A stretch of DNA of 64,000 bases, from the NCBI GenBank assembly GCA_008632985.1, contig QPGO01000064.1, positions 1 through 64,000 of the forward strand, read 5' to 3'. The DNA comes from Psammoneis japonica. Taxonomy: Eukaryota. Under the pieces are notes generated by a model. The model worked only from the letters and a program-made list of their open reading frames with translations, did no database searches and was not told where the DNA came from. Of the stretch, positions 1-64,000 are shown one piece after another. Positions within the stretch are counted from its first letter, which is position 1; every line of letters starts with the position of its first letter. The position numbers and the translations under genes are program-made.

Positions 1-1408
1 CCTGCCTTGAAGCCACCACCAAGGAGAAGCTTTACATTGCAGCTGGACCCGAATTTGGCAAACTCGAAGGACACATCCTTGTCATCCACAAGGCACTGTA
101 TGGACTGCGCAGCTCCGGTCTCCGCTGGCACGAGCGCTTCGCCGACTGCCTGCGAGCTGAAGGCTTCTTCCCCTGCCGCGCTGAACCCGACATTTGGATG
201 CGCAGGGACGGCAACCACTGTGAACACATTGGCGTTTATGTGGATGACCTCGCCATTGCCATGAAGGATCCTCAATCTTTCATCAACACTCTCACGGAAA
301 AATGCAAGTTCAAGCTCAAGGGTGCGGGACCCATTGAGTTCCATCTGGGTTGCGACTTTTCCCGGGACCCCGACGGAACCTTGTGCCTGTCTCCGCGCAA
401 GTGCATCGAGCGCATGGTCGACAGCTGCGCCCGATTGTTTGGGGAGAAACCTGCCACCAACGCCCTGTCACCTCTAGAGAAGGGTGACCACCCCGAACTG
501 GACACTTCCGAACTGCTGGGACCCGATGGCATTCACAAGTTCCAGTCTCTTGTTGGTTCACTCCAATGGGCAGTGTCCCTTGGTCGAATTGACATTGCCA
601 CGGCTGTCATGTCACTCTCTAGCTTCCGAGCTGCGCCCCGTCAAGGCACTTGGATCGTGCCAAACGCGTCTGTGGGTGCCTCTCCAAGATGCGACACGGT
701 GCTCTCTGCGTTCGCACGGAAGAGCCCGACTGTTCGGATCTCCCTGCTCCGGCCTGTGAATGGATGCATTCCGTGTGTGGTGAAGCAGAAGAGATGATCC
801 CGAAGGACGCTCCACCGCCCCTTGGCAAGTTCGTCACTGCCACCCACTACGTCGATGCAAACTTGCACCATTGCATGCTCACCGGACGCTCTGTCATGGG
901 AATGCTCCACTTCCTCAACAAATTCCCGGCTGATTGGTTCTCCAAGAAACAAGCCACCGTGGAGACTGCAACCTGCGGATCTGAATTTGTTGCCGCAAGG
1001 AATTGTGTTGAGCAGATTGTCGACCTGCGCATCACCCTGCGCTGCCTTGGCGTCCCGATCCGCAATGTTAGTTACATGTTCGGTGACAACAAGTCAGTTG
1101 TAGACAGTGCCACCATCCCGCACTCCAAGTTACACAAGCGACACACCGCACTGTCGTTCCACCGTGTGCGTGAGGCAATTGCCTCTGGTTGCCTTGAGTT
1201 CCACTTCATCGAGGGCTCCCGCAACCCTGCTGACATTCTCAGCAAGCATTGGGGTTGCTCCCAAATCTGGGACCTTCTCCGCCCCCTCATGTTCTGGAAC
1301 TTCATCCCATCCGAAGTCGAATCTGTTTCTGTAGCTCCTCAAGCAAACTGGGGAGTGACAGGATTTGAACAGGATTTGGATGCGCGCGAAGTATCGCGCG
1401 CTGTTTAG
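1..1408 (+). mobile_element. Ty1/Copia (CoDi-type) LTR retrotransposon pol 3' end (RT + RNase H), degenerate
   Basis: KALYGLRSSG, YVDDL (RT), GRIDIATAV, HYVDANL, WFSKKQATVETATxGSEF, GDNKSVV, NPADILSKHW (RNase H). 1-bp frameshift at ~648 (PRQG/HLDR). Many Tyr positions now Cys/His. Confidence 0.95.
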
Positions 1409-1631
1409 TTTGCCACGCACAGTTTTGTGTGCTTTAGTTCCGCGCGTTCACGTGCGATGTAGTTTGCTTTCGAGCCACAAGGCTCACAAGAACAATGACA
1501 GCAGCCCGATTGCACCGACTTGCACGTCTTTCGGCTCCTGCAACGGTCTCTGAGCGGAGACTCATCTGCTGTTTAGACAGCAGCAAGGAGTCATTGTTTG
1601 AATTCTTGCCATTTGCCTTCATTTTCTGTCA
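1356..1631 (+). repeat. 3' LTR of the Copia element (~276 bp)
   Basis: Purine run GGGGAG (1350-1355, PPT-like) directly precedes TGACAG. The segment ends in the inverted terminus CTGTCA at 1626-1631. Confidence 0.75.
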
Positions 1632-1675
1632 AGACAATCTACTTTCTTCAACACAGTGGGCCTGAAAAGATGAAT

Positions 1676-1748
1676 GAATGTGTGATCTAGATGGTCCAGG
1701 TGTTCCACCATGGCAAGGATGGTCGTGGGTTCGAGTCCCACCCAAGCA
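1676..1748 (+). pseudogene. tRNA-like relic (tRNA pseudogene or SINE head)
   Basis: Perfect T-arm GTGGG-TTCGAGT-CCCAC, A-box-like TGATCTAGATGG, ~73 nt spacing. Acceptor and anticodon stems do not pair well. Confidence 0.4.
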
Positions 1749-2099
1749 CCGCAATGTTCTGCGCGTTTCCGTGTCACCGTGCATGGGGCACGCATGATGG
1801 GCACAAGTCCAGGCACTTCAACCTGGTTAGACCGGCGTGCATGTCCTGAGCGGACATCTCATCCCCTTCATTGAGGGCCTTCAGCGAAGCCGGTGAAAAG
1901 GGTCGGGCCAGAGTTCTGCTCGCCAGCCGATGTGAGAGTGACAGGTGTGATGCCATGCAGCAAATGGTGCCAACAAATGAGCAGTCCTCAATTGTTGGTG
2001 GTCATCTGAAATGTCCCCTGAGAAGTCTTCACAGATTTCTGTCAATGAAGAAGATGGAGCAGATGCAGATGTGAGAATGAAAGAGATCACAGAACAGGA

Positions 2100-3050
2100 A
2101 AATGAAATGTCACATGCTGCAAAGCATGTCGAGTGAGCTCGAAGGCAACGGACACTTGTGCAACAGCACGTTTTGGAAGAGACAGAACACGTGAAAGCCA
2201 ACAAGGCACATGGTGAGCAAACTTGTGCAAGGATTGGTGGCTGTTGTCAAAATGGCGGGCTTCCACATTTTGGGGCGGATCAGCCAGGGGAGATGCACTG
2301 CTTCTTTCCTTTGATGTTCAACACGTTTGAGACTGACGACCCTGCGGGGGAAAAAGTTGTGGTGGTGACGGAAGATGAGTTCAAGGATTTTTTGCATGCA
2401 TCATGTGTCTGCCATGAGGGTGCTGGACAAAAGGGAGGTGACAATGTTGCTTCCCTTGTGATGAAGCACTTGCATGATGGTGGGCTGTTGGATGTCAGCA
2501 AGGGTCCAGGCGGAAAGCTTGCATTGATTTTTGACAACTGCACCGGGCAAAACAAAAACAACACGGTGTTGAGACTTGCTGTGCACCTGGTGGAACAAGG
2601 ACATTTCAAAGAAGTGAGCATTGTTTTTTTGATGAAAGGGCACACCAAGAATGCCTGTGACAGGCTCTTCAACAGCCTCAAGCAAACTCACCATGACAAG
2701 AACATGTTGGCATGTTCCGCAAACTCTTGACAGCCTTGGACACCTCCAAGTGCACTCAGGTCATTGAAGCAAAGGGGAGGAGGATTTTGCAAAACATTCG
2801 ATGGAATGCCGCCATTTTTAAAATGTCACATCATGTGTGTTTGAATTGTTGAACTGACACGCCGAGGCCAACATGCTTGATGTTGGCGGTTCTAACCTGA
2901 TTGTCACAAAGACCCCTGCCAAGAGACTCAGAGTGGAGACTCGAGACAAACCTGAGGATGCCAAAAGGGAGGCAAACTCAGAGGAGCAACAAAGTTGAAA
3001 AGAGCTGCAACTGAGCTGCCTGGAGAGAACACTTGCTGCCAGAGATGAGA
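2100..3050 (+). mobile_element. Decayed DNA-transposon transposase-like ORF (DNCxGQNKN ... GHT ... DxxF motif family)
   Basis: LPHFGADQPG, HEGAGQKGGDNVASL, FDNCTGQNKNN, FLMKGHTKNACDRLF. Stops and frameshifts around it; no Tyr; TpA-free. Confidence 0.7.
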
Positions 3051-4190
3051 ACGAGGAGAGCACTTTTTTGTGAGCCAGGAGATGGGTCAGTGAAAACACC
3101 ATGGGGTCAGTGAAAACATGGGGGGAGCCCATGAACCAAACACTCCAGAGTCACATTGCTGCTGCACAAAAGTGGACATCACTGGCTTGAAGCACTCCAT
3201 GAGGTTTTGTCAAAAGCTCCAGCACCAGCATGGCAGGGAAAACATCATGTCACAGAAGCCAAGAGAAGCAAGCACCTCCAACACAGCAACAACAATGACC
3301 GCCCACATGAGCACCAAGTTTCTGCCTTGTGACAAAAAAAGCCATTGGCACCATGGCATTTTTTGTCTGTGGTTGTTGTTCAACTTTTTTCAGTGCAAAC
3401 AGACAGGCTTGTTGTGAATGATTTTGTTTGGTGGTTTCTCCCCTTTCACAAGTGCAAAGTTCTTGCAACCTCATTTGCGCCTTTTTTCAACTCCCTGCTC
3501 TAAAAGAAATTGAACACACAAACAACACTTTTGAATCTGCTGCATCTGGGTTAGCTCACATGGTCATTGATGTGTTTTGGAGATCTGGCTTGGCCACCTC
3601 CTTGTGCGCTGACTTTGAAACAAGCACCCCGCTTTGTGGCAAGAAGCGCGCGCTGTTTTGCCGCTTCTTTTGGTGCACACATCATGTTCATTTCACATTG
3701 TTGATTGGTGCTGCTCACACAATTGAAAAGTTGAAAGAAGTTGTCAAAGCTGACTGCACACTGTCATGGTGACTTGTGCAAAAAACACATCACAGCGCTG
3801 CCCCGCATGCTGGGGAACATGGCCACACGTTGAACAGACTCCAGTGTGCACTTTGTCATGGAGAATGTGGAGTTGAAGAAGACCAGCTAGAGCTGGAAAT
3901 GGCTGCGAGGTGCTGGGTTTGCTTCAACTGGAACATGCAGGTGTGGGATCTGTGCTTCAAAGAACCAAGTTGGTCTTTTGGCACTCGCAGTTGACCAGAT
4001 GAGCTCCCCACTCTCCCAAGACCCATCACTTTTGGATCCTGCAGTTGCACAGCATGTTGATGGGCGCAGAGTGATTGACATGGAGCCCTTCATGTTGGGG
4101 GAGTGCACCCCAGTCTCTCAATCATTGTGGGAGCTGGCAGTGAGGGCAACGAAAGGGTTGGAACCGCGGTGCTCCGTCGGTTTACGACAA
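3050..4190. mobile_element. TpA/CpG-depleted repeat relic, family uncertain (weak piggyBac-like hints on minus strand)
   Basis: Only ~3 TpA seen in 1.1 kb. Cys/His-rich spurious ORFs. Family assignment rests on faint motif resemblance only. Confidence 0.45.
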
Positions 4191-4742
4191 CCTTGTGGCA
4201 GGCAGTCACTTTAGTGAAAATGTAGACCCTTTCAATTAAAAAAAATGTCGCAGAGAATGTCTATAAAATAGTTCTTCAACGTTGGCGGCTCATCCGCCCT
4301 GCATCGATTGTTGCCGGTCACAGTTTTGTCTTGTCGTCGACATTTTAAGAAGTCTCGAGCGGACAGAATGATTAGTCATAGAGACAAAACATTTATACAG
4401 CATTTCGCGCGAATAGCTATTTAGGGACAAAACATTTAAAAACGACTTTGTCTTTAACAAATTCATCAGCGACATATACAGTTTTTCGTAGCTGTAATCT
4501 TTCGGAATAGCCCTACATGGGAATGAATTAAAGCCCCCCACAATTCGACTTTTATGGTGACAATAATCCTACCTGCGCGTTGTTCAAAAAAGACAACGAA
4601 CGAAAGCCTCTCTACTAGTAGAGGACAAACAAAACATCACAAAGCAAACAATACAAACGTTCTAGTCACTCGACACCAACGTTCGACGTGATAGATTGTG
4701 TATCACGCCGTCGTCTCGACGCGCATCAGCAACTTGAAAACT

Positions 4743-7078
4743 ATGATGATCATCAGAGCGGCATGGACTGTGCTTGCTGCACTTGCTTTTGACGTCTTTG
4801 ACGCAGCTTCGGCGCAAAAACAAGAAAAACCCAATATTGTATTGATTGTAGCGGATGATCTCGATGCCGACGAGCTTGGAGTAACAGCTCAAGAGACAGG
4901 CATTTGGCCAACTAATACAGGAGCTGGACGGCTCGGCTTGTGGACTAAAAAACATGATCCAAATGTACTCACACCACACATTGATTCCCTGGCAAGAGAC
5001 GGTGTACTCATGACCAAATATCATGTCAGCAACACGCAGTGCACCGGAAACCGCTACGCTATGCTAACGGGACGGCAAGCGACGCGTGGAGAGGACTTGC
5101 TGAACCATTTTCCAGTTGGGACTCTCGTCAATTTGGGTTGGGAAGCGGGAATTCTGAGAAACGAAACCAATGTGGCTAAATCGCTTCAAGCACTTGGATA
5201 TCGGACTGGCATTATTGGAAAGTGGCACAACATTCCCGAGAACGAGTATGCCAAACGTAGGCTCCCTTTAAAATATCGACCAGATCATTTGCCAAACGCC
5301 AACTACAGTCACACGCGGTCGGTCCATGGAAACTCAAGGCTCATTATGACGCGCATGTGGCATACCTCAAAGATGGATTTGGTTGGGATGTGGTGGATAG
5401 GATGGAATGGGGTAATTCCATTGTAAATTTACAGTGGCAAGCCCAAGGTGCTGTCGAGTTTATCAAAGAGAGCGCTTATAACAGCCCTTTCTTCCTTTAT
5501 GCTGCTCTCCCTGTACCACACGGTCAATATTTCTTTTCTTTTAATGATCTGGAGAGCTATGACGATCGAGTCACTTCCAGAGGGATCATCACTAACGTGC
5601 CCAAGGTGTTACCGCCTGTATTCAGCGTCAATGCCCGCACGAAAGCGGCTGGTGTGAAGAAAGCGAATGCAATGGCCACACGAATGGATGACTATGTTGG
5701 AGTGATTCTGCGAGAGCTAAAAGATTTGGGCTTGAGTGACAACACCCTCGTAATGTTTACGAGTGACCACGCGAGTCGCGGAAAGAACGGATGCTATTCT
5801 GGCGGTGCTCACGTGCCTTTTATCGCTCGTTGGCCTCGAAAGATTAGGAAGAACACAAGAGTCGACTCCCTTGTGGCCAGCGTTGACCTAGCCCCTACCA
5901 TTATCGATGCCGCGGGAGGAACCGCTCCCGCTGATATGATTGACGGGATTAGCTTCAAGCCCGTGATGTTGGGACAACCCGAACCGAAGAACTTCCGGTC
6001 GAGCATTATACTTGAAGCACAGACTACCCGCGCCGTTGTCACAAAAAAATGGAGCTATATTGCGAACAGAGTGACCCCCGAGATTGCCAAGGCGATGGCA
6101 AAAAGACCGGGCAAAGTCTTTTGGTCCGGAGTCGACCATCACAATTATGATAACGAGCTAATGTATCCTGCGTACTGGGATGCGGACCAGCTGTATAACC
6201 TTGAAACGGATCTTTATCAGCAGGTTAATCTTGTTGCGGACAAACGCTATAGTGGCAAACTGAAATCTCTCAGGGCTGAACTTCATCGGTATATTGCAAC
6301 GACTCTTCATTCCTTTGGTGAATTCGGAAAGGGCGGTTCTCAACTTGACGCGGGCGGTTCCCAACTTGGCGCTTGGACTACACAGAACTTTCTCGAGTTC
6401 ACCGAATCTGAAGGTTATGCGAAAGGAAGCCTTAAGGCCTCTGATGATTGGGTTGGGACTTTGGAAAACTATATGGTGCACCCTGCTGGCCGAGGGTATC
6501 TGCAGCTGCCAAAAAGAAGACATGCACGCAACGTTGCCCTGATGAAAGCTGGGCTTCCTCTTTCAAACAGATATGAAGTTGTGTTGGACTTTAAATTTGT
6601 ACGACGACGAGGGAAACTTGATAAGGAGCAAGGTGTGCTCATGGCTGAGATAAAAGAGCGTTTGAAGAATGGAAAAGAGGGTAGCAAGCTGGGAATTTCT
6701 TTGATGCGATCAAGAAGCGGCGATATATACTTGTTGCGGCTCGAAAATAGCATGAGTTCAGAAGCGTGGAAGGCTAGAGGAATGGACATCAATGAAGACC
6801 TTTTGGGCTTCGGCGGTACAAAAAACGCTGCCCAGAGTGACCAACTGCGACTCACGTTCAAAGTCCAGCGCGGTTCAAAGAAAACTGACTGGAGGGTTAC
6901 CAGCACGATGGAAAATCTCGACAATGAGAAGGTTGTTTCTATACTGACTCATACGCTGGACTCGTCTCAGGACTTCTATACAGATGATATTCTATTCACC
7001 GCTATTAATTCGGTTGACTCAGAGGATTCGTCGCTCTTATTGGGTCGCACGGTTCAAAAGATCACCGCAAGGTCTTGA
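4743..7078 (+). CDS. Secreted sulfatase (S1 family) copy 1 with C-terminal beta-rich domain; 1-bp frameshift at ~5329
   Basis: Signal peptide, KPNIVLIVADDLD, CTGNRYAMLTG, GYRTGIIGKWH, FTSDH, HVPFIARWP, QLYNLETD. CATGG-AAA here versus CATGGCAAA in copy 2. No introns. Confidence 0.9.
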
Positions 7079-7223
7079 GAGACCACGCGGTCGCACTTCT
7101 CAGTCCCTCATCAAAACGTGGCATTTAGTCTAGGTGTATGCTGTTGGCAAATCTTACAAGTATAATGGCACAAAAGCGTTTCCTATAAAAAAGATATAAC
7201 TACTGTAACTGTTCAGGTTTATG

Positions 7224-8760
7224 TCATGTCCTGTGCAAAATTTCTGCCTTGTTGTGGGGCTCAATTTTTGCACATCTGTGTCAAGCACTGTCCTGGTGGC
7301 ACCATTTCATCAGATGACAGTGAATCAGAGGCATGTGATGCAAGCCTCGCTGTGCCTGTGGCAACAACAAACCTGAGAGGGGAAAGAGAAAGAGAGCAGC
7401 AAGGAGATGAGGTGTCCGGGTCATTGCAGGTGCTGCTTTTTGCACTGTGCCAGATGATGCTGGTGCACCCAAAAGATCTGATGTGCAAGAACATTGCTCA
7501 CAGCCTCAAAAGATTCACCCTGTGGTGTCTGGGCTGGCCTGGGACACCAGGGTGGCACACTCCAAACTGGAGGGGAAGCACATGCTTTTTTCAGGAGACT
7601 GCACAGTGCATGATGGCAGCAGCTGGCATGGTGCCCCCCCCCCCCTCTCCTGCCCTTCCCACCTGGAGCAGCATGCATGTGTTAAAGAAGAGGGCAGCTC
7701 ATGCCCCCCTCCTCCCAGGCAAACCTCTCAGACTGTGGCTGCCACCACTCAGAGGCCACTGCTGCAGCACCCCTGCTGGCGCTGCTCCTCCTCCCCGTGC
7801 TGTTGCTCCTCATTGCTCTGCAAGGCCTTTGCCCAAGAAAGCAAGGAAAAAAGCTCTTGCAATGCCTGAAGGAGTGGCTGGGAGAAGTTGCAAAATCCCC
7901 AGATGCTCCAGCCACATGTTGCAGCCCTGGACAAGCCCAAGAGCCTTGGCACCAAATCCAGGATGGGTTTTGTCATCAATTTTTTGGTTTGATTGCCGCT
8001 TTCAAGGTTGTTGCAGAGAGCAGTGCAGCAACCATCTCTTGTGCAAGACAGAGTTGAAAAGGGAAGGCCGCGAGTCGTTGAAACATTTTTGACAAGGTGC
8101 TTCTCAAGAAGGACACAACAGAAAAGAAACAAAGTTGGCCAAGTGTGACAAGCACTTGCGAAGTTGCTCCACAAGCACTTTGTTGGGCAAGAAGGCAGTT
8201 TGAAGTGACAAGAAACTGTGGGCCCCAAACACTGCTCACTGCACTTGCCCTGGCAATGGGGGTTGCTCTTCCAAGGACATGCCAACAACACCCTCAAAAA
8301 GCACAGCTTTGTCAAGCAAAGTGCGTGTGAAAATGTGCAAACGTTGATGCTTTGGTTGTGACTTGCTGTCGAAATTGTGCGCCAGCAGTTTTTTCCCATG
8401 TCTGGCAACAAGGACTCCGCTGTCTTGACTTTCTCTCAGAGCTGACACTGTGCCCAGCAGAAATGGGAAGTGAGCTCCATGTTGCACTGTGCGCTCAGTG
8501 AAGCACAACAGCTGCAGTGAGCATGTCATGCTCAGCTCGATTTTTGAGCTTTGCACGCCTCCCACCCTCCCTCTTTCTTGTGCCGCCACTTTCCTCAGGC
8601 AGTTGCTTGGAGTGTCGAGACAGCAACCTTTTCACTGTCTCCCACCACAGGTTACAATGAGACAGGGCTTTTTTGTCCAAAATGAGAGAGAGTTTTCACC
8701 AATGGCGATCCTCACCAAAAAACAAATTAACGCCCGCACGCTGACACACGTGGGTTGAGT
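7224..8760. mobile_element. TpA/CpG-depleted repeat relic inserted at the end of the sulfatase duplication unit
   Basis: Homology with the copy-2 3' flank (CTGTTCAGGTTTA) stops at ~7221. One TpA (GTTAAA, ~7683) seen between 7224 and 8650. Confidence 0.6.
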
Positions 8761-11049
8761 GCTATCCAAACGGTGTGTCATTGAAATAAATTCCTTTGGT
8801 GGCTGAAGATCACTGGTATGATGGCACGACGCTTTTGGGCCACGTCCGCGCGGCCATCGCTGTGATTTTCGACAAAACGCTCATAACCCATAAAATCAAT
8901 TTTTCTTCATCCAAAACGCAGACACGCGACGCAACTCAAGTCGACCATGGGATCGGTTGCGGCGGCGGCAATATTTAACACCAAGTGTAAGAAACACCTG
9001 GAGAGTATGTTAAAACCTCATTATGATGATAAGGTAAGGGTGATAAAGCAAGGCATCTTCATTTGATGCCTTTAATCGTCATCTGAACTTTTCACTCAAT
9101 TTCTTTGTTTCTTCTGCATCCGACACGACAGCAAATGTTTTGAAGGTGTAAAGTGGAAGGTATTAGGCAGGTACCCATGACTTGGACGATATATTCGATA
9201 AAGATGACATAGAAAGGCACAAGTTCTTTCTTTGGCAGTGTTTTCCGTTTCAAAAACAAAAGCAAGCGCGGAAATCCTTGCTCACAACGATCATTTGCAA
9301 CATTCAAATCGACTCAATGTCTACGTTATTCCATCCAAATGATTCATCAACGGCTAAAACACCACCCTCTATGTCTAAATGAGACGATCCTGGGCAGTTA
9401 TCAGTTGTCAAAAATTTATGAGAGTTCCTGAGGAGCCGCAAGCAGTTGGACCTCGGATCCTTTGAACATGCCAGCTCCAACCAAATCGATTCGGAGCACG
9501 GCTTAAATTGTTCATATTGTCTGCAAAGAGGCGTTTTGAAGCGGCACATATTTCTAAGATCGGGATCAAACTGTAGAAAATGCTGCCAGTGATAGGTAAA
9601 TGACGACAGCTGGCCGGAACCCATTTGTCGGACACCATTTTCATCATTTTGTACAGCATGCACGGAACGATGCGCAGTTTGTCAATAATGTAGATTGAAG
9701 GCTTTAAAATAGTGCAGGAAGCATCTAATATATAGAAGGACATTAAATATGAGCAATAGCAAGAGTCAACAAACACAATTAGTGACATTGAAGCCCGAAA
9801 GTAGGATTGATCCGGAACTTGGTGTGAGCAGGTGGTTCTCTCTGCAAGGCTCCAAGCGCTAGAAATCACTACTGCAATGATGAGAATAGAATTATCAATG
9901 AGTAATTTGACAAAAGTGGTATAGACTAGTGCTGTTAATGGCTAATTATGACTAGGAGCTACATGCCACGACCTCGAGGAGATGCACATGCCACGGCAGA
10001 TTGAACTGGCAGACCCCAGCATGCCGAGAAAACACTCGTATCAATGTCTATTCTCTGCTGAGCATAGTTACAGTTCGATCTTGAAGGTTTGAGGGTCTCG
10101 GCAAAGCCCCTTTGAGGGACAAACAAGGTTTACAACTGTGCTTTGCATCGATTTGGCTGCAGGTGCTAGATTCGCAGAAGTCTGAGTCCACCTGCTTGCG
10201 GGCCCTCACGTCCTTGAATTGCTCTTTTGTTACCTTGTCTTGCCCATATTAGCTTCCTTTATTACATGAAGGGGCTCTCTAATTCCTTGAACAACCCCTC
10301 CTCATGAATTTCTTGGCATTCTGAGTCGATCAGGCGGTTGCAATAGGAAAAGGCGACGGATGCACTTGTGGATGAGCTCTTGTTTTCAGCTCAGCATCAC
10401 CTCCCACAACAGTCAGGATATTTTCTCCTTCATCTCGATCATAAATATCGACGAATGAACGTTATCCTATGCCGCACCTTCAATGTTGAACCTTGAGAAC
10501 GTCGCCTGAAGTTGTCGGAAGCAGCGACATCGGGTGAAACAAGTGGGCGGCAGCAAAAGTCTTTTTTCGCTCTGTAAGTCCAAGATTCGCAATGTTTTAC
10601 ATAGAACGACAGACATGTAAGTAAATGATGAGATACAATTGAAACATTGCGAATGTTGACCCAAGAACGCAAGCAGTAACGTTCTTACCGATGAACGGCG
10701 ACTCACCATTTTCGTTCCGTAACTTTTACGCATTTTTTGTACTGTGAATTGTGGGAGGCAGATCTGAATTTCGGCCCAAAAAAAAGAAGGAAGGAGCGGC
10801 TTTTCAGTACTGCCGTAGAATCTACGTGCAAGATGACGTCACAGTACAAAATGCCATTTCTACGCAGCGGTGGCCGCTCCCGCGAGCGTCGTGTGTTTGA
10901 CAACCTCCGGCCCGGCACTCCAACTCGGCGTCCCGTAGAAATGCACGCGAACGAGATCACAAATCACACAGCATTCTCAAATTCTCCACTTGACACCAAC
11001 CTTCGACGTGACATTCACCGTTCTCACGCCTTCGGTCCTCCTTGCTTCG

Positions 11050-13355
11050 ATGATGAACAAAGCGGCGTGGATTGTGCTCGCTGCACTTGTCGTCCTTGAC
11101 GCAGCTTCGGCGCAAAAACAAGAAAAGCCCAACATTGTGTTGATTGTAGCGGATGATCTCGATGCTGACGAGCTTGGAATAACAGCTCAAGAAACAGACA
11201 TTTGGCCAACGAACACGGGAGCTGGACGGCGCGGATTCTGGACCAAGAAATATGATCCAAATGTCCTCACTCCTCACATTGATTCCATGGCAAAAGACGG
11301 CGTAATCCTGACCAAGTACTATGTCAGCAACACGCAGTGCACCGGAAATCGCTATGCCATGCTAACGGGACGGCAACCGACGCGTGGAGACGACTTACTG
11401 AAACACTTTCCTGCTGGAACTCTCGTCAATTTGGGTTGGGAAGCGGGAATTCTAAGAAACGAAACTAACGTTGCCAAATCTCTCCAAGCATTGGGATATC
11501 GGACTGGCATTATAGGAAAGTGGCACAACATTCCCGAGAACGAGTATGACGAACGTAGACTCCCTAAAAGAAATCGACCAGATCATGCTGCAAATGCCTC
11601 CTACAACCATACGCGGTCGGTTCATGGCAAACTCAAGGCTCATTATGACGCCCATGTGGCATACCTCAAGGATGGATATGGTTGGGACGTGGTGGATAGG
11701 ATGGAATGGGGTAATTCCATTGTAAATTTACAGTGGCAAGCCCAAGGTGCTGTTGAATTCATCAAAGAGAGCGCTAATAAGAGCCCCTTCTTCCTTTATG
11801 CTGCTCTCCCTGTACCACACGGTCAATATTTCTTTTCATATAACAATCTGGAGAGCTATGACGATCGAGTCACCTCCCGGGGGATCATCACTGATGTACC
11901 CAAGGTGCTGCCGCCTGTATTCAGCGTCTATGCCCGTACAAGAGCGGCTGGTGTGAAGAAAGCAAATGCAATGGGCACACGAATGGATGACTATGTTGGA
12001 GTGATTTTACGAGAGCTAAAAGATTTGGGGTTGAGTGACAACACCCTTGTACTGTTTACGAGTGACCACGCAAGTCGTGGAAAGAACGGATGCTATTCTG
12101 GCGGTGCTCACGTGCCTTTTATCGCACGATGGCCTGGAAAGATTCGGAAAAACACAAGAGTCGACTCCCTCGTGGCCAGCGTTGACTTAGCCCCTACGAT
12201 TATCGATGCCGCGGGAGGAACCGCCCCCGCTGATATGATTGACGGGATTAGCTTCAAACCCATGCTGTTGGGACAACCCGAACCGAAGAACTTCCGGTCG
12301 AGCATTATACTTGAAGCACAGACTACCCGCGCCGTTATCACGAAAAAATGGAGTTATATTGCGAACAGAGTGACCCCCAAGATTGCCAAGGCAATGGCAG
12401 AAAATCCAGGCGAAGTCTTTTGGTCCGGAGTCAACCACCACAATTATGACAACGAGCTAATTTATCCTGCGTACTGGGATGCGGACCAGCTGTATAATCT
12501 TGAAACCGATCTTTATGAACAGGTAAACCTCGTCGCGGACAAAAATATAGTGCCCAGCTAACATCTCTCAGGGCTGAGCTAGACCGGTATATTGCAACGA
12601 CTCGTCACTCCTTTGGTGAGTTTGGAACCGGCATTTACCAAGGTATCACGCAGGCTACACAGAACTTGTTCGAGTTCACCGAATCGGAAGGTTATGTGAA
12701 AGGAAGCCTTAAGGCCTCTGATGGTTGGGTTGGGACGTTGGAAAACTACATTGTGCACCCTACTGGGCACGGTTATCTACAACTTCCAAAAGGCAGTCAT
12801 GCACGGAACATCGCGGCGATGAATGCTGGTCTTCCACGTTCAAACACATATGAAGTTGTGTTGGACTTTAAATTTGTACGAAAACGAGGGAGACTTGATA
12901 AGAAGAGAGGTGTGCTCATGGCTGAGATAAAAGAGCAGTTCAAGAACGGAAACGAGGGTAGCAAACTGGGAATTTCTTTAATGCGATCAAGAAGCGGGCG
13001 TATATACTTGTTGTGGCTCGAAAGCAGCATGGGTGCAGAAGCGTGGAAGGCCAGAGGCACGGTCATCAATGAAGACCTTTTGGGTTTCGATGGTACAAAG
13101 GATACCGCCCAGAGTGACCAACTGCGGCTCACGTTCAAAGTTGAGCGCGCTTCAAACAAAAGTGACTGGAGCGTTACCAGCACGATGGAAAATCTCGACA
13201 ATGAGAAGGTCGTCTCTATGCTGACTCATAAACTGGACTCTTCTCAGGACTTCTATACAGATGATATTCTATTCGCCGCTATTAATTCGGTTGACTCAGA
13301 GGATTCGTCGCTCTTATTGGGTCGCACGGTTCAAAAGATCACCGCAAGGTCTTGA
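11050..13355 (+). CDS. Secreted sulfatase copy 2; 1-bp frameshift at ~12545
   Basis: Paralogue of copy 1. ORFs 10990-12561 and 12666-13355 join by restoring one base in GACAAAAATATAGT. Confidence 0.9.
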
Positions 13356-14550: not shown

Positions 14551-16856
14551 ATGATCAACAAAGCGGCATGTATCGTGCTTGCTGCACTTGTTGTTGACGT
14601 CTTTGACGCATCTTCGGCGCAAAAACAAGAAAAGCCCAACATTGTATTGATTGTAGCGGATGATCTCGACGCCGACGAGCTTGGAGTAACAGCTCAAGAC
14701 ACAGGCACTTGGCCAACTAATACAGGAGCTGGACTACTCGGCTTGTGGACAAAGAAACATGATTCAAATGTACTCACTCCGCAGATTGATTCGCTGGCCA
14801 AAGAGGGTGCACTCCTAACCAAATACCACGTTAGCAACACGCAGTGCACAGGAAACCGCTATGCCATGCTGACTGGACGACAAGCAACCAGAGGAGACGA
14901 CTTGCTAAACCACTTTCCTATTGGGACTCTCGTCAATTTGGCTTGGGAAGCGGGTATTCTGAGAAACGAAACCAATGTTGCCAAATCTCTCCAAGCATTG
15001 GGATATCGGACCGGCATTATTGGAAAGTGGCACAATGTTGCCGAGTCTGACGAACGCAGGCTCCCTAAAAGAAATCGACCAGATCATTTGCCACAGGCCA
15101 CCTACGATCACACGCTGTCGGTTCAAGACAAACTCAAGGCTCATTATGACGCGCACGTGGCATATCTCAAAGATGGATTCGGCTGGGATGTGGTGGATAG
15201 GATGGAATGGGGTAATTCCATTGTAAATTTACAGTGGCAAGCCCAAGGTGCTGTCGAGTTTATCAAAGAGAGCGCTAATAAGAGCCCCTTCTTCCTCTAT
15301 GTTGCTCTCCCTGTGCCACACGGTCAATATTTCTTTCCATTTAACGATCTGGAGGGTTTTGACGATCGAGTCACCTCCCGGGGAATCATCACCGACGTGC
15401 CCACGGTGTTGCCGCCTGTATTCAGTGTCTATGCCCGCACGAGAGCGGCTGGTGTGAAGAAAGCGAATGCTATGGCCACACGAATGGATGACTATGTTGG
15501 AGTGATTCTGCGAGAGCTAAAAGATTTGGGGTTGAGTGACAACACCCTTGTACTGTTTACGAGTGACCACGCAAGTCGCGGAAAGAACGGATGTTATTCT
15601 GGCGGTGCTCACGTGCCTTTTATCGCTCGTTGGCCTGGAAAGATTAGGCCAAACACAAAGATTGACTCCCTCGTAGCCAGCGTTGACCTAGCCCCCACGA
15701 TTATCGATGCCGCGGGAGGAACCGCTCCTGCAGATATGATTGACGGGCATAGTTTCAAACCCATGCTGTTGGGACAACCAGAACCGAAGAACTACCGGTC
15801 GACCATCATACTTGAAGCACAGACTTGTCGAGCCGTTGTCACAAAAAACTCGAGTTACGTTGCGAACAGAGTGACCCCCGAGATTGCCAAGGCAATGGCA
15901 CAAAATCCAGGAGATGTCTTCTGGTCTGGAAAGGATCACCACAACTATGATAACGACGTCATGTATCCTGCGTACTGGGATGCGGATCAGCTGTATAATC
16001 TTGAAACCGATCTTTATCAGCAGGTTAACGTCGTCGCGGAGAAAAGCTATGATGCCCAGCTAAAGTCTCTCAGGGCCGAGCTAGACCGGTATATTGCGAC
16101 GACTCGTCACTCCTTTGGTGAGTTTGGAACCGGCATTTACCAAGGTGCCACGCAAGCCACACAGAACTTTCTCGAGTTCACCGAATCTGAAGGTTACGTG
16201 AAAGGAAGCCTTAAAACCTCTGACGGTTGGGTTGGGAACTTGGACAACTACATGGTGCACCCTACTGGGCACGGTTATTTACAACTTCCAAAAGGTAGTC
16301 ATGCAAGGAACATCGCGGTGATGAATGCTGGTCTTCCACGTTCAAAACGATATGAAGTTGTGTTGGACTTCCAGTTTGAATGTAAAAAAGGCAGCCTTGA
16401 TAGGAGGCGTGGCGTGCTCATGGCTGAAATCAGAGAGCTGTCGAAGAACGGAACAGGGAGGAGCGCTTTGGGAATTGCTTTGATGCGATCAAGAAGAGGG
16501 CACAAATACTTGTTGCGGCTCGCAAACAGCATGAATGTGGAATTGTGGAGAGCCAAAGGAACGGTCATCAACGAAGACCTTTTGGGTTTCGGTAGCTCAA
16601 AGGTGTTGTCCAGAGTGATCAACTGCGACTCACGTTCATACTGGAGCGTGGTTCAAACGAAAGTGACTGGGCTTTTACCGGCAGGTTGGAAAACCTCGAC
16701 GATGAGAAGGTTGTATCTATGCTGACTGGCACATTGAACTCTTCCCGGGACTTTTTCTCCGACGAGGTTCTGTTTGCCAGCATTAATTCTCTAGACTCAG
16801 AGGATTCGTCGCTCTTATCCAGACGGACAATTCAAAGGATTGCCGCAAGGTCGTAA
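14551..16856 (+). CDS. Secreted sulfatase copy 3; 1-bp frameshift at ~16602
   Basis: Paralogue of copies 1 and 2. After the shift the frame continues QSDQLRLTF...IAARS to TAA at 16854-16856. Confidence 0.9.
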
Positions 16857-24488: not shown

Positions 24489-24879
24489 CTTGGTTCATTC
24501 AACAATGGGATTCATGACGGACATCTGTAAAACGAATGGGTGTCCAGAAGAAAGTATCGTATTAGACTGTCGCCCCCACTTGCCAGCTGATGCAACAGCA
24601 GACAGAGCGTAGTGACACACTGTACTTTCCTGTCGGATTGAACGAGACCAACGAGCTACCGCATGGGTTTTAATGTGATTTATCATGCAGTACGCGTTGC
24701 CGATCTCGAGAGTGAAGGCCAAGAAAAAAATGAAAGAGTCAATTAGAACTAGCAACTAGAACTTGTTGAATTGTCCAATGCCCCTCGAGAAGTGAAACTG
24801 TGGTTTTACATCTTTGTCCGTGACATTTCTAGGTGAGCTGTTGAGACAATAAGGAGCTGTCTTGGTCCCGCTTCGCTTG

Positions 24880-26150: not shown

Positions 26151-26310
26151 AGATTGGTGCGAATCTTTCCAGGTTTTTTTCACTTTTCTCGCAATGGGCA
26201 CAATGTGAAATGGCGGCGGTGGGAATTTAAATCCAGCAACCTTTCAACCAATCTAAAAAATGAACATCTGGTCTTTGTCTCGAACTCAATTGCCGAGTAG
26301 TTTCAATATT

Positions 26311-39273: not shown

Positions 39274-40291
39274 TTAGGAAGGGTTTCCGTTATGGTCACA
39301 CGGATAGGGCCCATTGTCGCTCAAACAAATCGTGTAGCTGTGAGGCCAGACATCGCTGTGCCAGAGCACCTGGCCATCACCGTAAAGGGTGAGCCTGTTC
39401 TCAGTAGGATGCTGGTTATATGCAGCAGAAAGATAGCAATCCTTGAGCCTAGTATTCCTCGTATTGGATGCCCACTTGATTTCTCCCATGTCAGCCAAGT
39501 CATTTCCTTTGAAAATGATCAAGTTGCAATCCCGCTGCAAGTACATGGTGAGGTTGTCACCGCCGGAAAACTTGTTGTCGGACGGGCTGTACAAGTTTCC
39601 TCTCTTGAGGGAATTGTAATAGGGATTCGCGTTCTGAGAAAGCGAGAAGTAGTCCAAGCTATTCCAAACTCCGGAACCTCTTCGTGACAGATAAAGAGAG
39701 CAGGTGTCTACTTGGAGGTAGAGTTTGTAGGAAGCGCTGCCGAGGTTCGTGCCAGTGGCATAAACGACCTCGTTGTCATTTCCTCCCGGACCATTCTCTC
39801 GGTAGACGACCAAGTTCCCGTCGGTCTGCAATGCCGCGAAAAACTCTCCACCTCTGCTTGGGTTTCCTGTCTGCCAAGAAGTCTTGAATTGGCCGTTAAT
39901 CTTCCGCTCCACCATAAGATTACCACGGTTGTTTAGACGCAGCCGGCATTTGCCGCCAGGGTTAACCTTTGCGTTAGACACCCCGGGGTACAAGCGTTCT
40001 GCGGGTGGCGAGCCCATTATCTGTTCAATAACACCAAGTTTCCTCTACAAACCAGAAAAACGCAAAACAGTATGATCAGCAAGAGTTCGCCTCGTCACAA
40101 CCCTTCACTTTACCTGAACTTACATCGTCTTCTTCTCCAAGTCGCCTCTGGACCAACAAGATTGGAAAAACAGATAAACAACATCAGAAACTCTAACTAT
40201 ATGGCTGTTCGAGATTCATACTTCCGATACGTACACTTTCTCCCTGTCCAACGAGAAGCAGCGCTAGGATTGCGATTGAAGGGATCTTCAT
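39274..40291 (-). CDS. Secreted bulb-type (B) lectin-like protein, 3 exons
   Basis: MKIPSIAILALLLVGQGES signal exon, 24-nt microexon RRLGEEDD, LQTDGNLVVY, YATGT, LQRDCNLIIF, WASNT. Confidence 0.8.
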
Positions 40292-48779: not shown

Positions 48780-49530
48780 ACTTCGGTGTCTGTCAGTCTT
48801 GGGCTTCGTGCTCGCGATGTGTTCTCTGATTCTCTGGCCTGGCTGTGCTACACACACTCATTTTGTTTTTGCGGTAGCGTTGGTGCCTCAAACCACGGTT
48901 CTTGGGAAATGGGTCCACACACAGAGGGGCAACAAGGACACCATGCCAGCAGAACGACGTCAAAAGCTAGACGACATTGGGTTTGTTTGGGACGCTTTTG
49001 AATGTGCTTGGAATGAAAAATGCCAACAGTTGTGTGAATGCCGCGAGACTCATGGAAACAGCAAGCACTGCCATTTGTGATGCTTCAACTCATTTCTGTC
49101 TCATCATGATCTAAGATTGTGCTCTGTTCATTTTGTGTTTGCGGCAGCGTTGGTGCCCAAAACCTTGGTTCTTGGGAAATGGGTCTCAAAGCAGAGGGGC
49201 AACAAGGATGCGATGACAGCTGAACGACGTCAAAAGCTAGACGACATTGGGTTTTCTTGGACGGGCAAGAAACTCAGTGAATGGGAAGTGCACATGGCCA
49301 TGATGCAGGCAACTGGGAAAGCTGACTGTGCTTCTCCTGCTCCTGCTCCGGCAGCTGCTGCGCACGCCGCTGCTCCACCGCCGGTGCTCTCATTGCGCCT
49401 GCCATTGCGCCTGCTTTCGGTTCACTCGCACGGCGGAGCTAGAACAGAATCGAGAGCTGTTCGATGCCGAGGCGCACCTGGAGCAGCGCTGTTTTGGAAG
49501 GCCATCTCTAGAGAATTGACAGCATACACT
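48780..49530 (+). pseudogene. Helicase-associated (HA) repeat gene relic, TpA-depleted
   Basis: Two LGKWVxxQR...ERRQKLDDIGFxW repeats. WNEKCQQLCECRETHG has Cys at positions that are normally aromatic. Intron-like spacers. Confidence 0.7.
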
Positions 49531-52918: not shown

Positions 52919-53220
52919 TCATGAGGACTCGTCCTTTGCCATTATTGGCTTGACATGCGAGTCACATGCCGCATGTTCAAGTTGCACCTGTACCAAACAA
53001 TGCTTTCCCGGAATCATGGCTTGACTCAGCTCTTTTGTGACCGTGACGCTGTTTTCTCCCAAGGTTCCTCCAGAGCAAACATCTGGATCTGTTTGTAGTT
53101 CTTCCACAGCCTTGGCCAAGATTGCATTTTTCCTGTCTGTTGAGGGAAGAAAGATTTTTAAGCATTGACCACAGACTGCAATTCTGGGAACATGTTCCAA
53201 AGAAAAAGAGACATCACAGT
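52919..53220 (-). pseudogene. Mutated duplicate of LSM gene exon 2, followed by TpA-poor sequence to ~53460
   Basis: Aligns to 56889-57160 with repeated TA to CA/TG changes. Exon 1 is absent. Confidence 0.85.
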
Positions 53221-53787
53221 CAAATGAAAAGAGTTTTTGCTGACTTTGTGCTGCAGTCACAGCCAAAGTCACTTCATCAAGAGCCCCGATGAACAGTCAA
53301 AGTCAAAGTCAGGCAGTCAGCTGAAAGGACGACCACAAGTCAATTAACAGTCATGGTCAGTCATGTCTCATGGTGTTCAGTGAGCAAACTGACTAACATG
53401 CATCACTTGTTGAGGCCATCTGCAACTTGTTTCTGCTCAGCGCGCGTGCCTTTATTTGATCGAAAAGGTTTCCTTCAAGTTGGAGGGAGGAGTGAGTCGA
53501 AGTGGTACTGTACGTACCGGTACGTACCTGGTAGTACCGGTACATAATGATGTACCGTACAATAAGTCTGTTAGGGCAACTTAAAAGTCATACCGGTAGT
53601 CATAGTCATTTCAAAGAAACAAGCAGTGACTTGCTATACTATTGTACTACGCTACTGAATTTTGTATTTACTGGAGTGTCTGTCCGCTGACATTCTTGAA
53701 AAAGACTCGAAAATTCCAAAAAACACGACTTCGCGTTTGCAACACGGGTCTCACTATTTTGCGATTTCATGATCTGTAGTTGACACA

Positions 53788-61277: not shown

Positions 61278-62654
61278 CTACACACTTGCTTCCTTTTCCG
61301 TCGTTTGTTCCTCCTCTTCCTGTTGTTCCTCATTTTCTTCATACTCAAGATACTGAGAAACATCCGTAAAGTTTCCAGGCGCCGGCGGCCCTCCAGCAGG
61401 CGCCGCTGCAGCCTCCTCTTCAAAACCAGGTCGTCCAATCGAAATGGTCATGCTTCCATCGGCGTGTCGTCGTTGTTCCACTCGTGACGACGATTGTGGC
61501 AAATGCAATTGTGATCTTGCCGGTGTTCCCTCTCCTCCTCCGAGCAAATCAGCATTTGCGCTAGCAGCAGTACCACCGGGTGTTTCCAAAACACCCGGTT
61601 GCGTCCTTGGACTTGGGAATCTCATCAATCCCGGCGACGCAAAGGCTGGTGACTGCAAATGATGATGATGAGACGACGGAAGGGGTGACATGGGAATATC
61701 TGCCATGAAGGGGTGGTGATGATGATGCAACGGAGGTGGTTGCCTGGCAGCCGCCGCTTGTGCCGCCTTGATTCCCTGTTGTTTGATTCTCTGTCGACGT
61801 ACCCGATCCCCCTCGTTCTTTCGTTGCTTGGCCTGAAGAGCCTGTTCTAAAAACTCTTGTTCTTGTTTTGTTCTCTTTTTATCAGGTCTTGCTAGAATGC
61901 GTTCAATCTCTGTCTTTTTCTCAATCGCGCGTTCTCTCGATCGATTGTTCTTTCGTTGACGTCTGTCTTCAAAGGAGGCAAGCTTGTCTCGTTCTTCTTG
62001 CGTAAGTTCTTCCTGAGGTTTTCGGCGAATCGCTTCAATTTGTTCTCGAAGTCTCGCGGCCCGCAATCGAGACTGCGCATTCTTTCGGTTCCTCCGATCG
62101 TCCATGGTCTGCGCCTTGGTCCTGCGTCGTTTTGCCGGAGGAGGCTTGAGCGATGCTTCTGCCTCTGGGGGTAAGCCAGCTACATCAGGAGGAGGAACTC
62201 CGGGAGCCCCTTCTTCGTACCTCGATGCATCTTGATAAAACGGAGGCAAATGTGACGGGTAAGGAGCATATCCACCATGAGGAGCATGTCCCTGAGGAGG
62301 CGGAGGATATGGAGCATACATTGGGTACGGTGGTGGAGCTCCAGCACCATAAGGCTGAGGAGGCCACCCCGGAGGATAACGTGGCGCATGCAAGCCGGGA
62401 GGAGGATACCCCGGTAAACCCGCAGCAGCGGCAGCAGCAGCCGATCCAGGAGGATACATTCCGGCGGCAAAGGCTGCAGCTTGATGATGTTGTTGAGCAG
62501 CAGCGGCGGCAGCACTTGCAGCACTAGGAGCCGCAGAAGTAGTAGCAGCAGCTGCGCTTCGTTTCGGAGCTGAAGCAGTAGCAGCAGAAGTAGCAGCGAC
62601 TGGAGCTTCCGCCGTCTTTTCTTCTTCCCCTTGATCCCCTTTGTTGCTACTCAT
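61278..62654 (-). CDS. Putative transcription factor with repeated bZIP-like basic regions
   Basis: Ala/Pro/Tyr-rich N-terminus, PPAKRRR NLS, RRNRKNAQSRLR, RRQRKNNRSRER, KQRKNEGDRVRR with coiled coils. Confidence 0.7.
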   Translation of the reverse strand: MSSNKGDQGEEEKTAEAPVAATSAATASAPKRSAAAATTSAAPSAASAAAAAAQQHHQAAAFAAGMYPPGSAAAAAAAGLPGYPPPGLHAPRYPPGWPPQPYGAGAPPPYPMYAPYPPPPQGHAPHGGYAPYPSHLPPFYQDASRYEEGAPGVPPPDVAGLPPEAEASLKPPPAKRRRTKAQTMDDRRNRKNAQSRLRAARLREQIEAIRRKPQEELTQEERDKLASFEDRRQRKNNRSRERAIEKKTEIERILARPDKKRTKQEQEFLEQALQAKQRKNEGDRVRRQRIKQQGIKAAQAAAARQPPPLHHHHHPFMADIPMSPLPSSHHHHLQSPAFASPGLMRFPSPRTQPGVLETPGGTAASANADLLGGGEGTPARSQLHLPQSSSRVEQRRHADGSMTISIGRPGFEEEAAAAPAGGPPAPGNFTDVSQYLEYEENEEQQEEEEQTTEKEASV

Positions 62655-63494
62655 CGCTTATACGTTCTTATTGCACTCGTTCCTACACTCAGGCGGCAAT
62701 TGTCATAGTCTCGCTCTTCTTCGTTGTATACATTTATTTATAGATGATTTTGATTGCTTTCCCCAAATCCGTTTTTTCTCTCTCTGTATTTTCCCCGTGC
62801 AGAACGAACCAACCTTGGTAACCCCGGCAATCCAATTGCTCGAGACCCCGGTGATGATGTTACTCTGCACAACTACACTCAACAGAGAGAAAGAGAGTTG
62901 TGTGTGTGTGTGCTGTTGTTGCGGTTGTTGCGGCGTGTTGGATGCACTGCACAAACGCGGGATCGCCCGTTCCGCCACGCCTCACGATTTATATAAATAT
63001 TCATAACAATATATGCGGTTACAAAAATTCGAGCGCCAAACGGCGAGCGTTATCCGTTGAATATACATACTTGATGAAGTCATAAAATTATCAAATTTAT
63101 TTTTCAAATATTCAAGTATATATTCTAAGCACACAAATGACAGTTTAAATACTTAACAAGAGAGTTCGCCAAGCATTCTCAAACATATAAGAAGTGTGAA
63201 AGGAAATATTTAAATGCTATTCAATGACAAAGGTTATTCATTTATTATGCCTTTCTCGAGCTATCACTTTGCGTTTACTCTTCACCTCCCTGGGCGAGGC
63301 TGCTCGGACCAAAATTTGACGGGCGCGCCAAAATTGTCAAACAAAAAATTTGAAGAGACACGAAGAGTTCCGAATGCTCCTTGATCGTGATCTCATTGCC
63401 TGGTTGCCTTCTACCGGTACCCAATAGGAATCATTCGGGTCCTCAGAGTCATCACGTAGAAATTGTGTAGGACAGTACCAAAAATAATTATAAT

Positions 63495-64000
63495 GAGTCT
63501 GTCCATCAGTCCGTGTGTGAATGTCAACTTCTCGGGAAATCAATTGAAATGCCATCTGATCGACGGTGTTTTGATTCACATGGTGAAGGCCAATGCCGTC
63601 AATCAGATGGCATTTCAATTCAGTTCCCGAAAAGTCATTAGCTCCAATCACTCTCTTGTGTGACATTGTGTGCATTTCTGCGCAATTTTGTGTTTTTCCC
63701 CACGCAAAATGTCAATTGTGACTCATGCGACATTTTCGAATGACTCCTGTTGGCATCTTCTCGTGACGTGTCGTCGAGTGGTGATGTCGGTCGGTGCCAA
63801 TGCTCGTTGGAGGAGCATTCTCTTGTTTCTGGTCATGTTTCATTCACGCTGTTGTGCATCCAAAATGGACTCTGCATTCTCTGGAGATGCCATTCCTGAG
63901 CTGCTGGCTGCACAGCTGGTGACACACAAGAGGGAAAGGCCGGCCCTGCCCCCGCCAAATGGGGCAGAGAGCCAAAGCCCAAAAAGTTTTTCATGGAGCA
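63495..64000. mobile_element. Start of another TpA-depleted repeat island (runs off the window)
   Basis: One TpA (ATTAG, ~63639) seen in the last 500 bp; TG/CA-rich; contains the inverted repeat. Confidence 0.5.
63527..63635. repeat. 44-bp imperfect inverted repeat with 21-nt spacer
   Basis: Arm 63527-63570 is the reverse complement of 63592-63635 with about 6 mismatches. Confidence 0.85.

Follow-up and report, generated by a model that had tools for sequence, protein, structure and literature searches.

TpA-poor islands in nuclear DNA of the diatom Psammoneis japonica point to a TpA-specific A-to-G process in silent DNA

Why should discrete tracts of diatom nuclear DNA be nearly devoid of the dinucleotide TpA and rich in TpG and CpA, and what could have made them so? 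The question is raised by 64,000 nt of Psammoneis japonica contig QPGO01000064.1 (called here the window), in which a sequence-only reading had named eight such islands. The explanation that we favour, and to which we give a probability of about 0.75, is a conversion of A to G that takes place at the level of DNA, is specific for TpA, strikes both strands and is confined to bounded silent domains.

Dinucleotide counts in the eight islands named earlier gave observed/expected (o/e) ratios of 0.01-0.18 for TA, 0.17-0.74 for CG and 1.5-2.1 for TG/CA, and the stretch 7224-8650, said to hold a single TpA, indeed has 1 TA in 1427 bp. A two-state hidden Markov model (HMM) whose sole input was the share TA/(TA+TG+CA) returned the same eight islands, with a summed length of 12,314 bp (19.2% of the window), inside which TA accounts for 0.023 of the TA, TG and CA steps compared to 0.223 outside; the existence of the eight TpA-poor, TG/CA-rich islands is thus confirmed independently of the first count. 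The longest TA-free runs comprised 217, 208 and 198 TG/CA steps whereas the maximum in 1000 label shuffles was 72, and 11 runs of at least 60 steps were observed compared to at most one in any shuffle. Because the TA-free runs far exceed those of the shuffles, chance is excluded as the cause of the islands. The largest TA-free gaps measure 991, 970 and 966 bp. Pooled o/e values, computed from seven islands (11,097 bp, that is, all except 48780-49500) and from the rest of the window, were as follows:

TA: pooled islands 0.08 (58 TA), rest of the window 0.59
CG: pooled islands 0.39, rest of the window 0.97
CA: pooled islands 1.73, rest of the window 1.17
TG: pooled islands 1.69, rest of the window 1.19
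AT: pooled islands 0.79, rest of the window 0.95
GC: pooled islands 1.23, rest of the window 1.03
AA: pooled islands 1.26, rest of the window 1.14
TT: pooled islands 1.25, rest of the window 1.16

The low AT and high GC values of the islands are the arithmetic result of the changes TAT>TGT, ATA>ACA, TAC>TGC and GTA>GCA. The GC content is 50% in the islands and 47% in the remaining window. The edges of the islands are sharp within tens of bases, flanking TA being found 2-10 bp from the HMM borders, and TA-rich spacers adjoin the islands directly. They occupy the gaps between transcription units and end 150-500 bp short of the open reading frames (ORFs). With the borders set by the HMM, the islands and their identified parts are:

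Island 1, 3-4171: composite, 24 TA in 4169 bp
Part of island 1, 3-794 (+): Copia pol fragment (Pfam RVT_2, E 2e-15), continuing in another frame to about 1405
Part of island 1, to about 2000: high-copy tail resembling a long terminal repeat
Part of island 1, 2137-2727 (+): DUF7869 transposase relic (Pfam E 4e-15)
Island 2, 7222-8724: 2 TA in 1503 bp, 20 CG, single-copy depth
Island 3, 24858-26221: intergenic, 6 TA in 1364 bp, 19 CG, 163 TG, 159 CA
Island 4, 28711-31006 (core 28930-30600): 17 TA in 2296 bp, core TA o/e 0.10 and CG o/e 0.40
Island 5, 37461-38882: 2 TA in 1422 bp
Island 6, 48881-49430: the weakest, 3 TA in 550 bp, 24 CG, a broken tandem pair of ORFs with the helicase-associated (HA) domain
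Island 7, 52946-53448: 5 TA in 503 bp, overlapping at its start the tail of copy 1 of a 4-kb tandem duplicate
Island 8, 63494-64000, continuing past the end of the window: 1 TA in 507 bp

Least convincing, besides island 6, are the outer flanks of island 4, which are CG-rich and whose membership of the island is less clear.

The direction and the specificity of the change can be read from a control that the window itself contains. Segment 32050-33500 is duplicated at 38500-39970, and the edge of island 5 (about 38880-38950) falls within this second copy, dividing it as follows:

38517-38950 (+): hypermutated part of the second copy, aligned to the normal copy 32050-32520
38951-39970 (+): control part of the second copy, outside the island, aligned to 32520-33500
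39274-40044 (-): intact lectin-like gene, within the control part

In the island part, the 17 aligned TA of the normal copy correspond to 9 TG, 6 CA and 2 TA, with one change in the reverse direction (binomial p 5e-4), and CG was lost at 13 of 14 sites with 2 reverse cases. In the control part, TA was kept at 30 of 37 sites, the changes being 7 one way and 5 the other, and CG at 28 of 36, with 7 and 9 changes. The divergence of the two copies is 19.8% in the island part and 14.6% in the control part. When transitions are sorted by context, those of the island part affect 9 of the 19 A in TpA (47%) and 6 of the 19 T in TpA (32%), compared to 7 of 77 other A (9%) and 5 of 92 other T (5%), so that the enrichment at TpA over other contexts foreseen by the sequence-only reading is borne out. 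The corresponding values of the control part are 4/42 and 3/42 within TpA, and 19/212 and 13/210 at other A and T. The A and T outside TpA therefore mutate in the island part at the control rate, which excludes generic GC-biased conversion and, together with the undepleted ApA and TpT, argues against polymerase error at WA motifs. It should also be noted that the other copy of the control part (32.8-33.4 kb) carries a frameshifted, probably dead lectin-like gene; since TA is kept in this alignment, probably non-functional DNA of equal age retains its TpA outside the island. As far as the alignment of two copies can tell, this duplicate shows the direction of the change from TA to TG/CA, its restriction to TpA and its local limitation.

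The same duplicate identifies one target. In the right third of island 5 (38462-38725), the 3' exon of an Mpv17/PMP22-like gene (31917-32264) is present as a dead duplicate, with 30 of 68 residues identical between the live and the dead copies (E 1e-18); the live copy matches the Pfam family Mpv17_PMP22 (E 8e-16) and the dead copy has no match to it. Island 7 allows a similar comparison, as the last aligned bins of the 4-kb duplicate hold 2 and 0 TA in copy 1 vs 7 and 5 in copy 2, and the alignment contains 10 changes of TA to TG/CA in the island with 1 in reverse.

Protein consensus provides a further view of the polarity. Tyrosine makes up 3.3% of the residues of the host genes, 1.1% and 0.8% of those of the two Copia ORFs and none of the 197 residues of the DUF7869 ORF, and Cys and His are elevated in all three ORFs (4.6% Cys and 7.1% His in the DUF7869 ORF vs 1.5% and 2.6% in the host genes). 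For the Copia reverse transcriptase (RT; 3-794, + strand), compared to the 83 of 150 listed homologues with at least 180 aligned residues, the 9 columns with a Tyr consensus hold 3 Tyr, 3 Cys, 1 His and 2 Phe in the window; the Cys codons are TGT, TGC and TGC and the His codon is CAC. For the DUF7869 ORF, compared to 48 of 51 homologues, none of the 12 Tyr-consensus columns retains Tyr (4 Cys, 3 His, 2 Val, 2 Phe and 1 Asn), and a Tyr-Tyr pair that is 98% invariant in the homologues has become His-Cys (CAC TGC).

The Copia fragment of island 1 belongs to a very high-copy family, since the depth summed over run contigs is 70,000-196,000 across 1-2001 vs about 58 for single-copy DNA. At 402-404, where the window has TGC, the copies elsewhere in the genome have TAC (Tyr) in 90% of the depth. 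Other copies carry CA or TG at two TA that survive in the window (1069 and 1074), with CA in 90% of the depth at 1069, and at 1671/1672 and 1789/1790 one Copia copy has TG and another CA. In the high-copy tail 3' of the Copia pol, at about 1700-1750, lies a stretch resembling a tRNA T-arm, GGTTCGAGTCC; ARAGORN called no tRNA at this stretch (near 1720-1750).

Both outcomes of the change are found in comparable numbers. Among 75 usable sites, 27 had become TG and 38 CA, and on the sense strand of the Copia element the outcomes were 16 TG and 11 CA. Because the outcomes are balanced and because part of a host gene and a gene resembling those of DNA transposons are affected, the process, as judged from the mutated sites, is one that acts on DNA, on both strands, and not on retroelement RNA. 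ADAR-like RNA editing of retroelement transcripts was considered and is ruled out by the sense-strand outcomes and by the non-retroelement targets. Among the 75 sites, whether TG or CA resulted did not depend on the base at -2 or +1. Of the sequence contexts, TTAG/CTAA, TTAA and CTAG are over-represented and ATAN/NTAT nearly missing among the 53 TA that survive in the islands; the 5' neighbour of a surviving TA is A in 5 of 106 cases, compared to 1191 of 4350 for TA elsewhere in the window (p 5e-11), which suggests that conversion may be slower at Y-TA-R.

We then considered the relation of TpA loss to the decay of CpG. The first part of island 1 (1-1400), with the Copia element, has a TA o/e of 0.18 while its CG o/e is 0.80, and the values for 2001-4190 are 0.04 and 0.33. 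The Copia values would be expected if TpA is lost more quickly than CpG decays. Six query sequences were used to find metagenome loci of Copia relatives, and the best-scoring 80 of 540 confirmed matches were taken, so that heavily mutated copies are probably under-represented. TA o/e was 0.5-1.0 in most of these 80 loci, with outliers at 0.02 (L062, with 3 TA in 2750 bp), 0.13 (L056), 0.31 (L041) and 0.33 (L072), and 4 of the 80 had a TA-poor stretch of at least 500 bp. TpA-poor stretches from unrelated assemblies were seen in L062 (the whole locus), L056, L052 (1-600) and L072 (1-650); past base 600, L052 has the opposite decay, with a CG o/e of 0.23 and normal TA. For each pair, the numbers of sites with TA (or CG) in the sequence named first and TG/CA in the other, vs the reverse, were:

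L003, then the window: TA 27 vs 1, CG 32 vs 12
L052, then L062: TA 26 vs 0, CG 2 vs 16
L066, then L072: TA 41 vs 7, CG 25 vs 32

Because the tables of L052/L062 and L066/L072 differ in direction between TA and CG, the loss of TpA is separable from that of CpG. Conversion of CpG to TpG/CpA, tried as the source of the TG/CA excess, explains only part of it, TA loss occurring without CpG loss. The proposal of the sequence-only reading that A:T is converted to G:C at TpA, separately from CpG decay, in discrete tracts of dead DNA is thus upheld by the duplicate, Copia and DUF7869 comparisons.

Some of the proteins predicted from Copia relatives bear the same mark. Among the 150 best Copia matches in a representative library, 10 have at most 1.5% Tyr and high Cys and His, and all 9 of these that were looked up are metagenome proteins; in their alignment the motif YEYIxVYVDD has decayed to CEHI.., CECI..C.. 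and CKCIAHH... Database ORFs named Copia that are free of Tyr and rich in Cys and His include P0159, P0161, P0211, P0260, P0226, P0232, P0192, P0230 and P0154. Tyr-free 'proteins' predicted from hypermutated DNA are hence already present in public databases and constitute an annotation hazard. A word-indexed search for Copia relatives gave 1 of 118 with at most 1.5% Tyr, almost all being intact and Tyr-normal, and one match was named Cylindrotheca closterium; the named relatives of the Copia and DUF7869 proteins are from Cylindrotheca closterium and Cyclotella meneghiniana. Judged from these predicted proteins and loci, the signature is present in metagenome Copia relatives, and the search of named diatom genomes gave almost only Tyr-normal proteins.

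What do the islands have in common? The sequence-only reading called the process repeat-targeted, a description that the duplicates of the window contradict. Three sulfatase paralogues that lie in tandem and share 88-94% identity across stretches of >2 kb have equal TA and CG counts and show no island mutation:

4784-7074, 11082-13351 and 14589-16852: tandem sulfatase paralogues

Here again, TA and CG counts are equal between the copies of the 4-kb tandem duplicate (89-98% identical). A non-coding repeat at 8672-10900, adjoining island 2, is present in about 15-30 copies (depth 900-1700) and keeps a TA o/e of 0.59; a transposon, either young or non-autonomous, is its probable identity. By contrast, island 2 is single-copy, and in the 32.0/38.5-kb duplicate only one copy was mutated. 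The features common to the islands are position and deadness, not copy number, and we infer that targeting is by chromatin state rather than by homology.

The same reading had described the islands as transposon relics and dead duplicates, and this holds for some of them only. Among 98 island ORFs, Pfam matched only RVT_2, DUF7869 and HA, the last in island 6 with E 8e-10 and 3e-7 in ORFs broken by stops. Together with the Mpv17/PMP22-like piece, these matches give the target types as Copia RT and DUF7869 in island 1 and a dead host-gene piece in island 5. Neither a Pfam match nor a blastn or tblastn partner within the window was found for islands 2 (12 ORFs), 3 and 4 or for the left part of island 5, and the same Pfam search assigned no identity to the remainder of island 1 up to 4171. 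Island 2 begins about 145 bp past the stop codon of the first sulfatase gene, and island 4 sits between the starts of two diverging genes. The TA-free islands give long spurious ORFs because TAA and TAG stops are absent from them. Island 8 contains a 53-nt inverted repeat (63527-63635; arms 81% complementary, 3-nt spacer), possibly the end of a transposon or a hairpin.

A process of this polarity has been described. Of 302 nuclear mutations in mutation-accumulation lines of Bigelowiella natans, 231 fell in an integrated nucleocytoplasmic large DNA virus (NCLDV) and a virophage, 230 of these 231 were A>G or T>C, all at TpA, and the rate was about 1000-fold over background (Mettrop et al., bioRxiv 2026, 10.64898/2026.01.13.699255). 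The B. natans genome also holds 124 clusters that are poor in TpA, rich in CpA+TpG and enriched in reverse-transcriptase and DDE domains; the authors, who give the mechanism as unknown, favour adenine deamination and propose an ADAT2-like deaminase. The statement that no described genome-defence system has this polarity is outdated by this preprint. Under its thresholds, 8 of the 64 1-kb windows of our stretch qualify, and Rho_TA correlates with Rho_CA+TG at r = -0.86. The island signature is the same as that of the de novo mutations in the integrated viral DNA of B. natans: A>G and T>C at TpA only, on both strands, in discrete non-host or silent regions, with lasting clusters poor in TpA and rich in CpA and TpG. 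The two cases differ in the host (a chlorarachniophyte, that is a rhizarian, vs a diatom, a stramenopile), in the targets (giant-virus inserts vs Copia, a DUF7869 relic and a dead host-gene piece), in extent (TA o/e 0.45 in the NCLDV region vs a near-complete 0.01-0.1 here) and in the CpG decay that accompanies TpA loss in the diatom. Full-text literature searches found no report of TpA hypermutation in a diatom.

The other known systems resemble the islands in part. Repeat-induced point mutation (RIP) of fungi likewise inactivates transposons where they lie, through dense transitions in a specific context, and results in islands of altered composition; however, RIP turns CpA into TpA, the dinucleotide that the diatom process removes, and hits both copies of a duplicate, whereas the window has intact tandem duplicates of 88-98% identity and, in the 32.0/38.5-kb pair, only one copy was hit. 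Deamination of 5-methylcytosine (5mC) yields TG/CA, affects silenced DNA only and, as the pooled CG value indicates, has occurred in most islands, but it cannot remove TpA, and the two losses are uncoupled in Copia 1-1400, L066/L072 and L052/L062. ADAR and APOBEC cause deaminase-type hypermutation of retroelements, and ADAR prefers a 5' U (Discussion of 10.64898/2026.01.13.699255), but their action is strand-asymmetric and restricted to retroelements, unlike the balanced TG/CA outcomes and the other DNA hit here. Lastly, the WA motif of Pol-eta in somatic hypermutation includes A>G at an A after T, and Pol-eta-like patch repair had been named as a candidate; the fit is poor, since WA also includes ApA and neither ApA nor TpT is depleted in the islands.

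How, then, could TpA be lost? In the mechanism that we propose, a TadA/ADAT-like enzyme would deaminate adenine in DNA and the next replication would read the product as G, so that the A of 5'-TA-3' would become G and TA would become TG, or CA when the other strand is struck. Between transcription units, its action would be limited to tracts of DNA that are bounded, dead and probably silenced, whether transposon relics, dead pieces of duplicated host genes or sequence that can no longer be identified. The process is near-saturating, separate from the CpG>TpG/CpA decay by 5mC deamination that usually accompanies it, and apparently faster than that decay. TadA/ADAT-like enzymes prefer a 5'-U/T, a preference that the preprint cites as well, the context of TadA being UAC. 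Adenine deamination by such an enzyme is the most likely chemistry.

An unlikely alternative, which nevertheless retains some credit, is that thymine is oxidised at TpA of silenced DNA by a TET/JBP-type enzyme and that the resulting 5-hydroxymethyluracil (5hmU) or 5-formyluracil mispairs with G to give T>C, seen as A>G on the opposite strand. In dinoflagellates 5hmU favours TpA, and 5-formyluracil does mispair with G. The strand-symmetric outcomes cannot separate A>G from T>C, but the near-total conversion would demand a highly miscoding base, and the B. natans authors prefer adenine deamination (10.64898/2026.01.13.699255).

It is improbable, in our view, that there is no targeting at all and that the islands are merely unselected, unrepaired DNA, for instance untranscribed heterochromatin, exposed to a genome-wide TpA>TpG/CpA bias or lesion. 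Such a reading would agree with the way in which the islands fill the space between transcription units up to a short distance from the ORFs, and with the moderate TA depletion of the rest of the window. It is opposed by the frameshifted lectin-like copy, of the same age, that keeps its TA, by the normal TA of the non-coding repeat at 8.7-10.9 kb, and by the TA-rich spacers that abut the islands at edges sharp to about 10 bp. A version in which ubiquitous lesions are left unrepaired in silent chromatin is possible.

That modified bases of silenced DNA were miscalled, the islands being a sequencing or assembly artefact, is very improbable. The islands were looked for in contigs of X1, one public run of the same sample that contains 69% of the sampled words from bases 1-10000 and whose contigs reach 315 kb. 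Across the left edge of island 2, a 1295-nt contig (7050-8342, depth 53.5) departs from the window by 4 letters and 4 gaps, and across its right edge a 484-nt contig (8395-8824) does so by 1 letter; at the right edge of island 1, a 1423-nt contig (3405-4827) departs by 2 letters and 2 gaps. A version of island 2 with normal TpA would need about 70 differences from the window, compared to the 4 substitutions found in the 1295 nt. The base-calling artefact that the sequence-only reading had named as its own refutation is thus opposed by X1, whose contigs reproduce the TA-free islands. An independent argument is that the same TA loss, and the same replacement of Tyr by Cys or His, occur in metagenome contigs and predicted proteins from unrelated projects; moreover, the differences between paralogues include indels and transversions, as is typical of true divergence. 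The 4 gaps in 1295 nt would suit an artefact insofar as small indels suggest a long-read assembly. The TA-free sequence is real, a check that is strong if not fully independent. A run of about 13 C lies at 7637-7650; the 4 small gaps of the region 7050-8342 suggest that one of the assemblies, the window or the run's contigs, contains homopolymer errors. Within the repeat 8672-10900, the X1 contigs have many internal joints.

Finally, it is scarcely credible that the islands arrived TA-poor, as foreign or viral DNA or as TA-avoiding transposon lineages, or arose by GC-biased gene conversion: although some TA-poor states are common to most Copia copies (1069), a dead host-gene piece is affected and its live copy spared, conserved tyrosines of the catalytic region are destroyed, A and T outside TpA are unchanged and island GC is only slightly raised, and no intact, active element with TA-free but Tyr-containing ORFs was seen.

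Several points weigh against TpA-directed mutation in place as we propose it. In the high-copy Copia family, source copies that were already mutated may have passed on part of the TA loss, which was then not acquired in place. The origin of four islands was not identified by Pfam or by similarity within the window. Apart from the protein consensus tests, the polarity rests on comparisons of two sequences without an outgroup, and the flanking-base preference, at 75 sites, is not attributable to one strand. The library type of X1 is not on record, and X1 is possibly the source data of the assembly. Lastly, the B. natans preprint caught de novo mutations, and what we describe is an accumulated footprint in the contigs of one sample alone.

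The setting of the islands is one of intron-poor, closely packed genes. Besides the genes named above, the window carries GGT, SAC3, PhyH and Agenet/DUF6824 genes and the following:

22935-24488 (+): DUF2779 protein
33599-37216 (-): fusion of a 5'-nucleotidase C-terminal domain with a class-C (7tm_3) receptor domain, in a single ORF of 1205 aa
57866-59134 (+): QTMAN-like glycosyltransferase (tRNA-queuosine mannosyltransferase N-terminal domain)

The best matches of the gamma-glutamyltranspeptidase are diatom proteins, from Attheya, Seminavis, Cylindrotheca, Thalassiosira, Nitzschia and others, at 45-56% identity, and the two transposon proteins likewise match diatoms best. The Agenet/DUF6824 protein had no usable match in the protein atlas.

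Selective TpA mutation of silent DNA has so far been reported from one organism, in a preprint only. The polarity is already known from that case; what sets the present one apart is the diatom host, the near-saturation, the CpG decay alongside and the dead host-gene piece that was hit while homologous live DNA was spared. An island edge that runs through a duplicated host segment, which has no counterpart in the published case, indicates that the process follows the domain and not the sequence family, and its uncoupling from the decay of methylated CpG likewise goes beyond the published case. The footprint in a diatom and in unrelated metagenome Copia relatives suggests that the process is not peculiar to one alga. 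It is conceivable, though we hold it doubtful, that TpA-directed adenine deamination is an old and widespread arm of genome defence, aimed by chromatin state and not by homology or foreignness, in the SAR group (stramenopiles, alveolates and rhizarians), with stramenopiles and rhizarians both possessing it. If so, any silenced DNA, dead host genes included, would be erased faster than by 5mC decay, and tractable diatoms would be a place to find a natural TA-specific DNA adenine editor. Among diatoms, which are a major group of marine primary producers, the process may influence both base composition and the decay of transposons.

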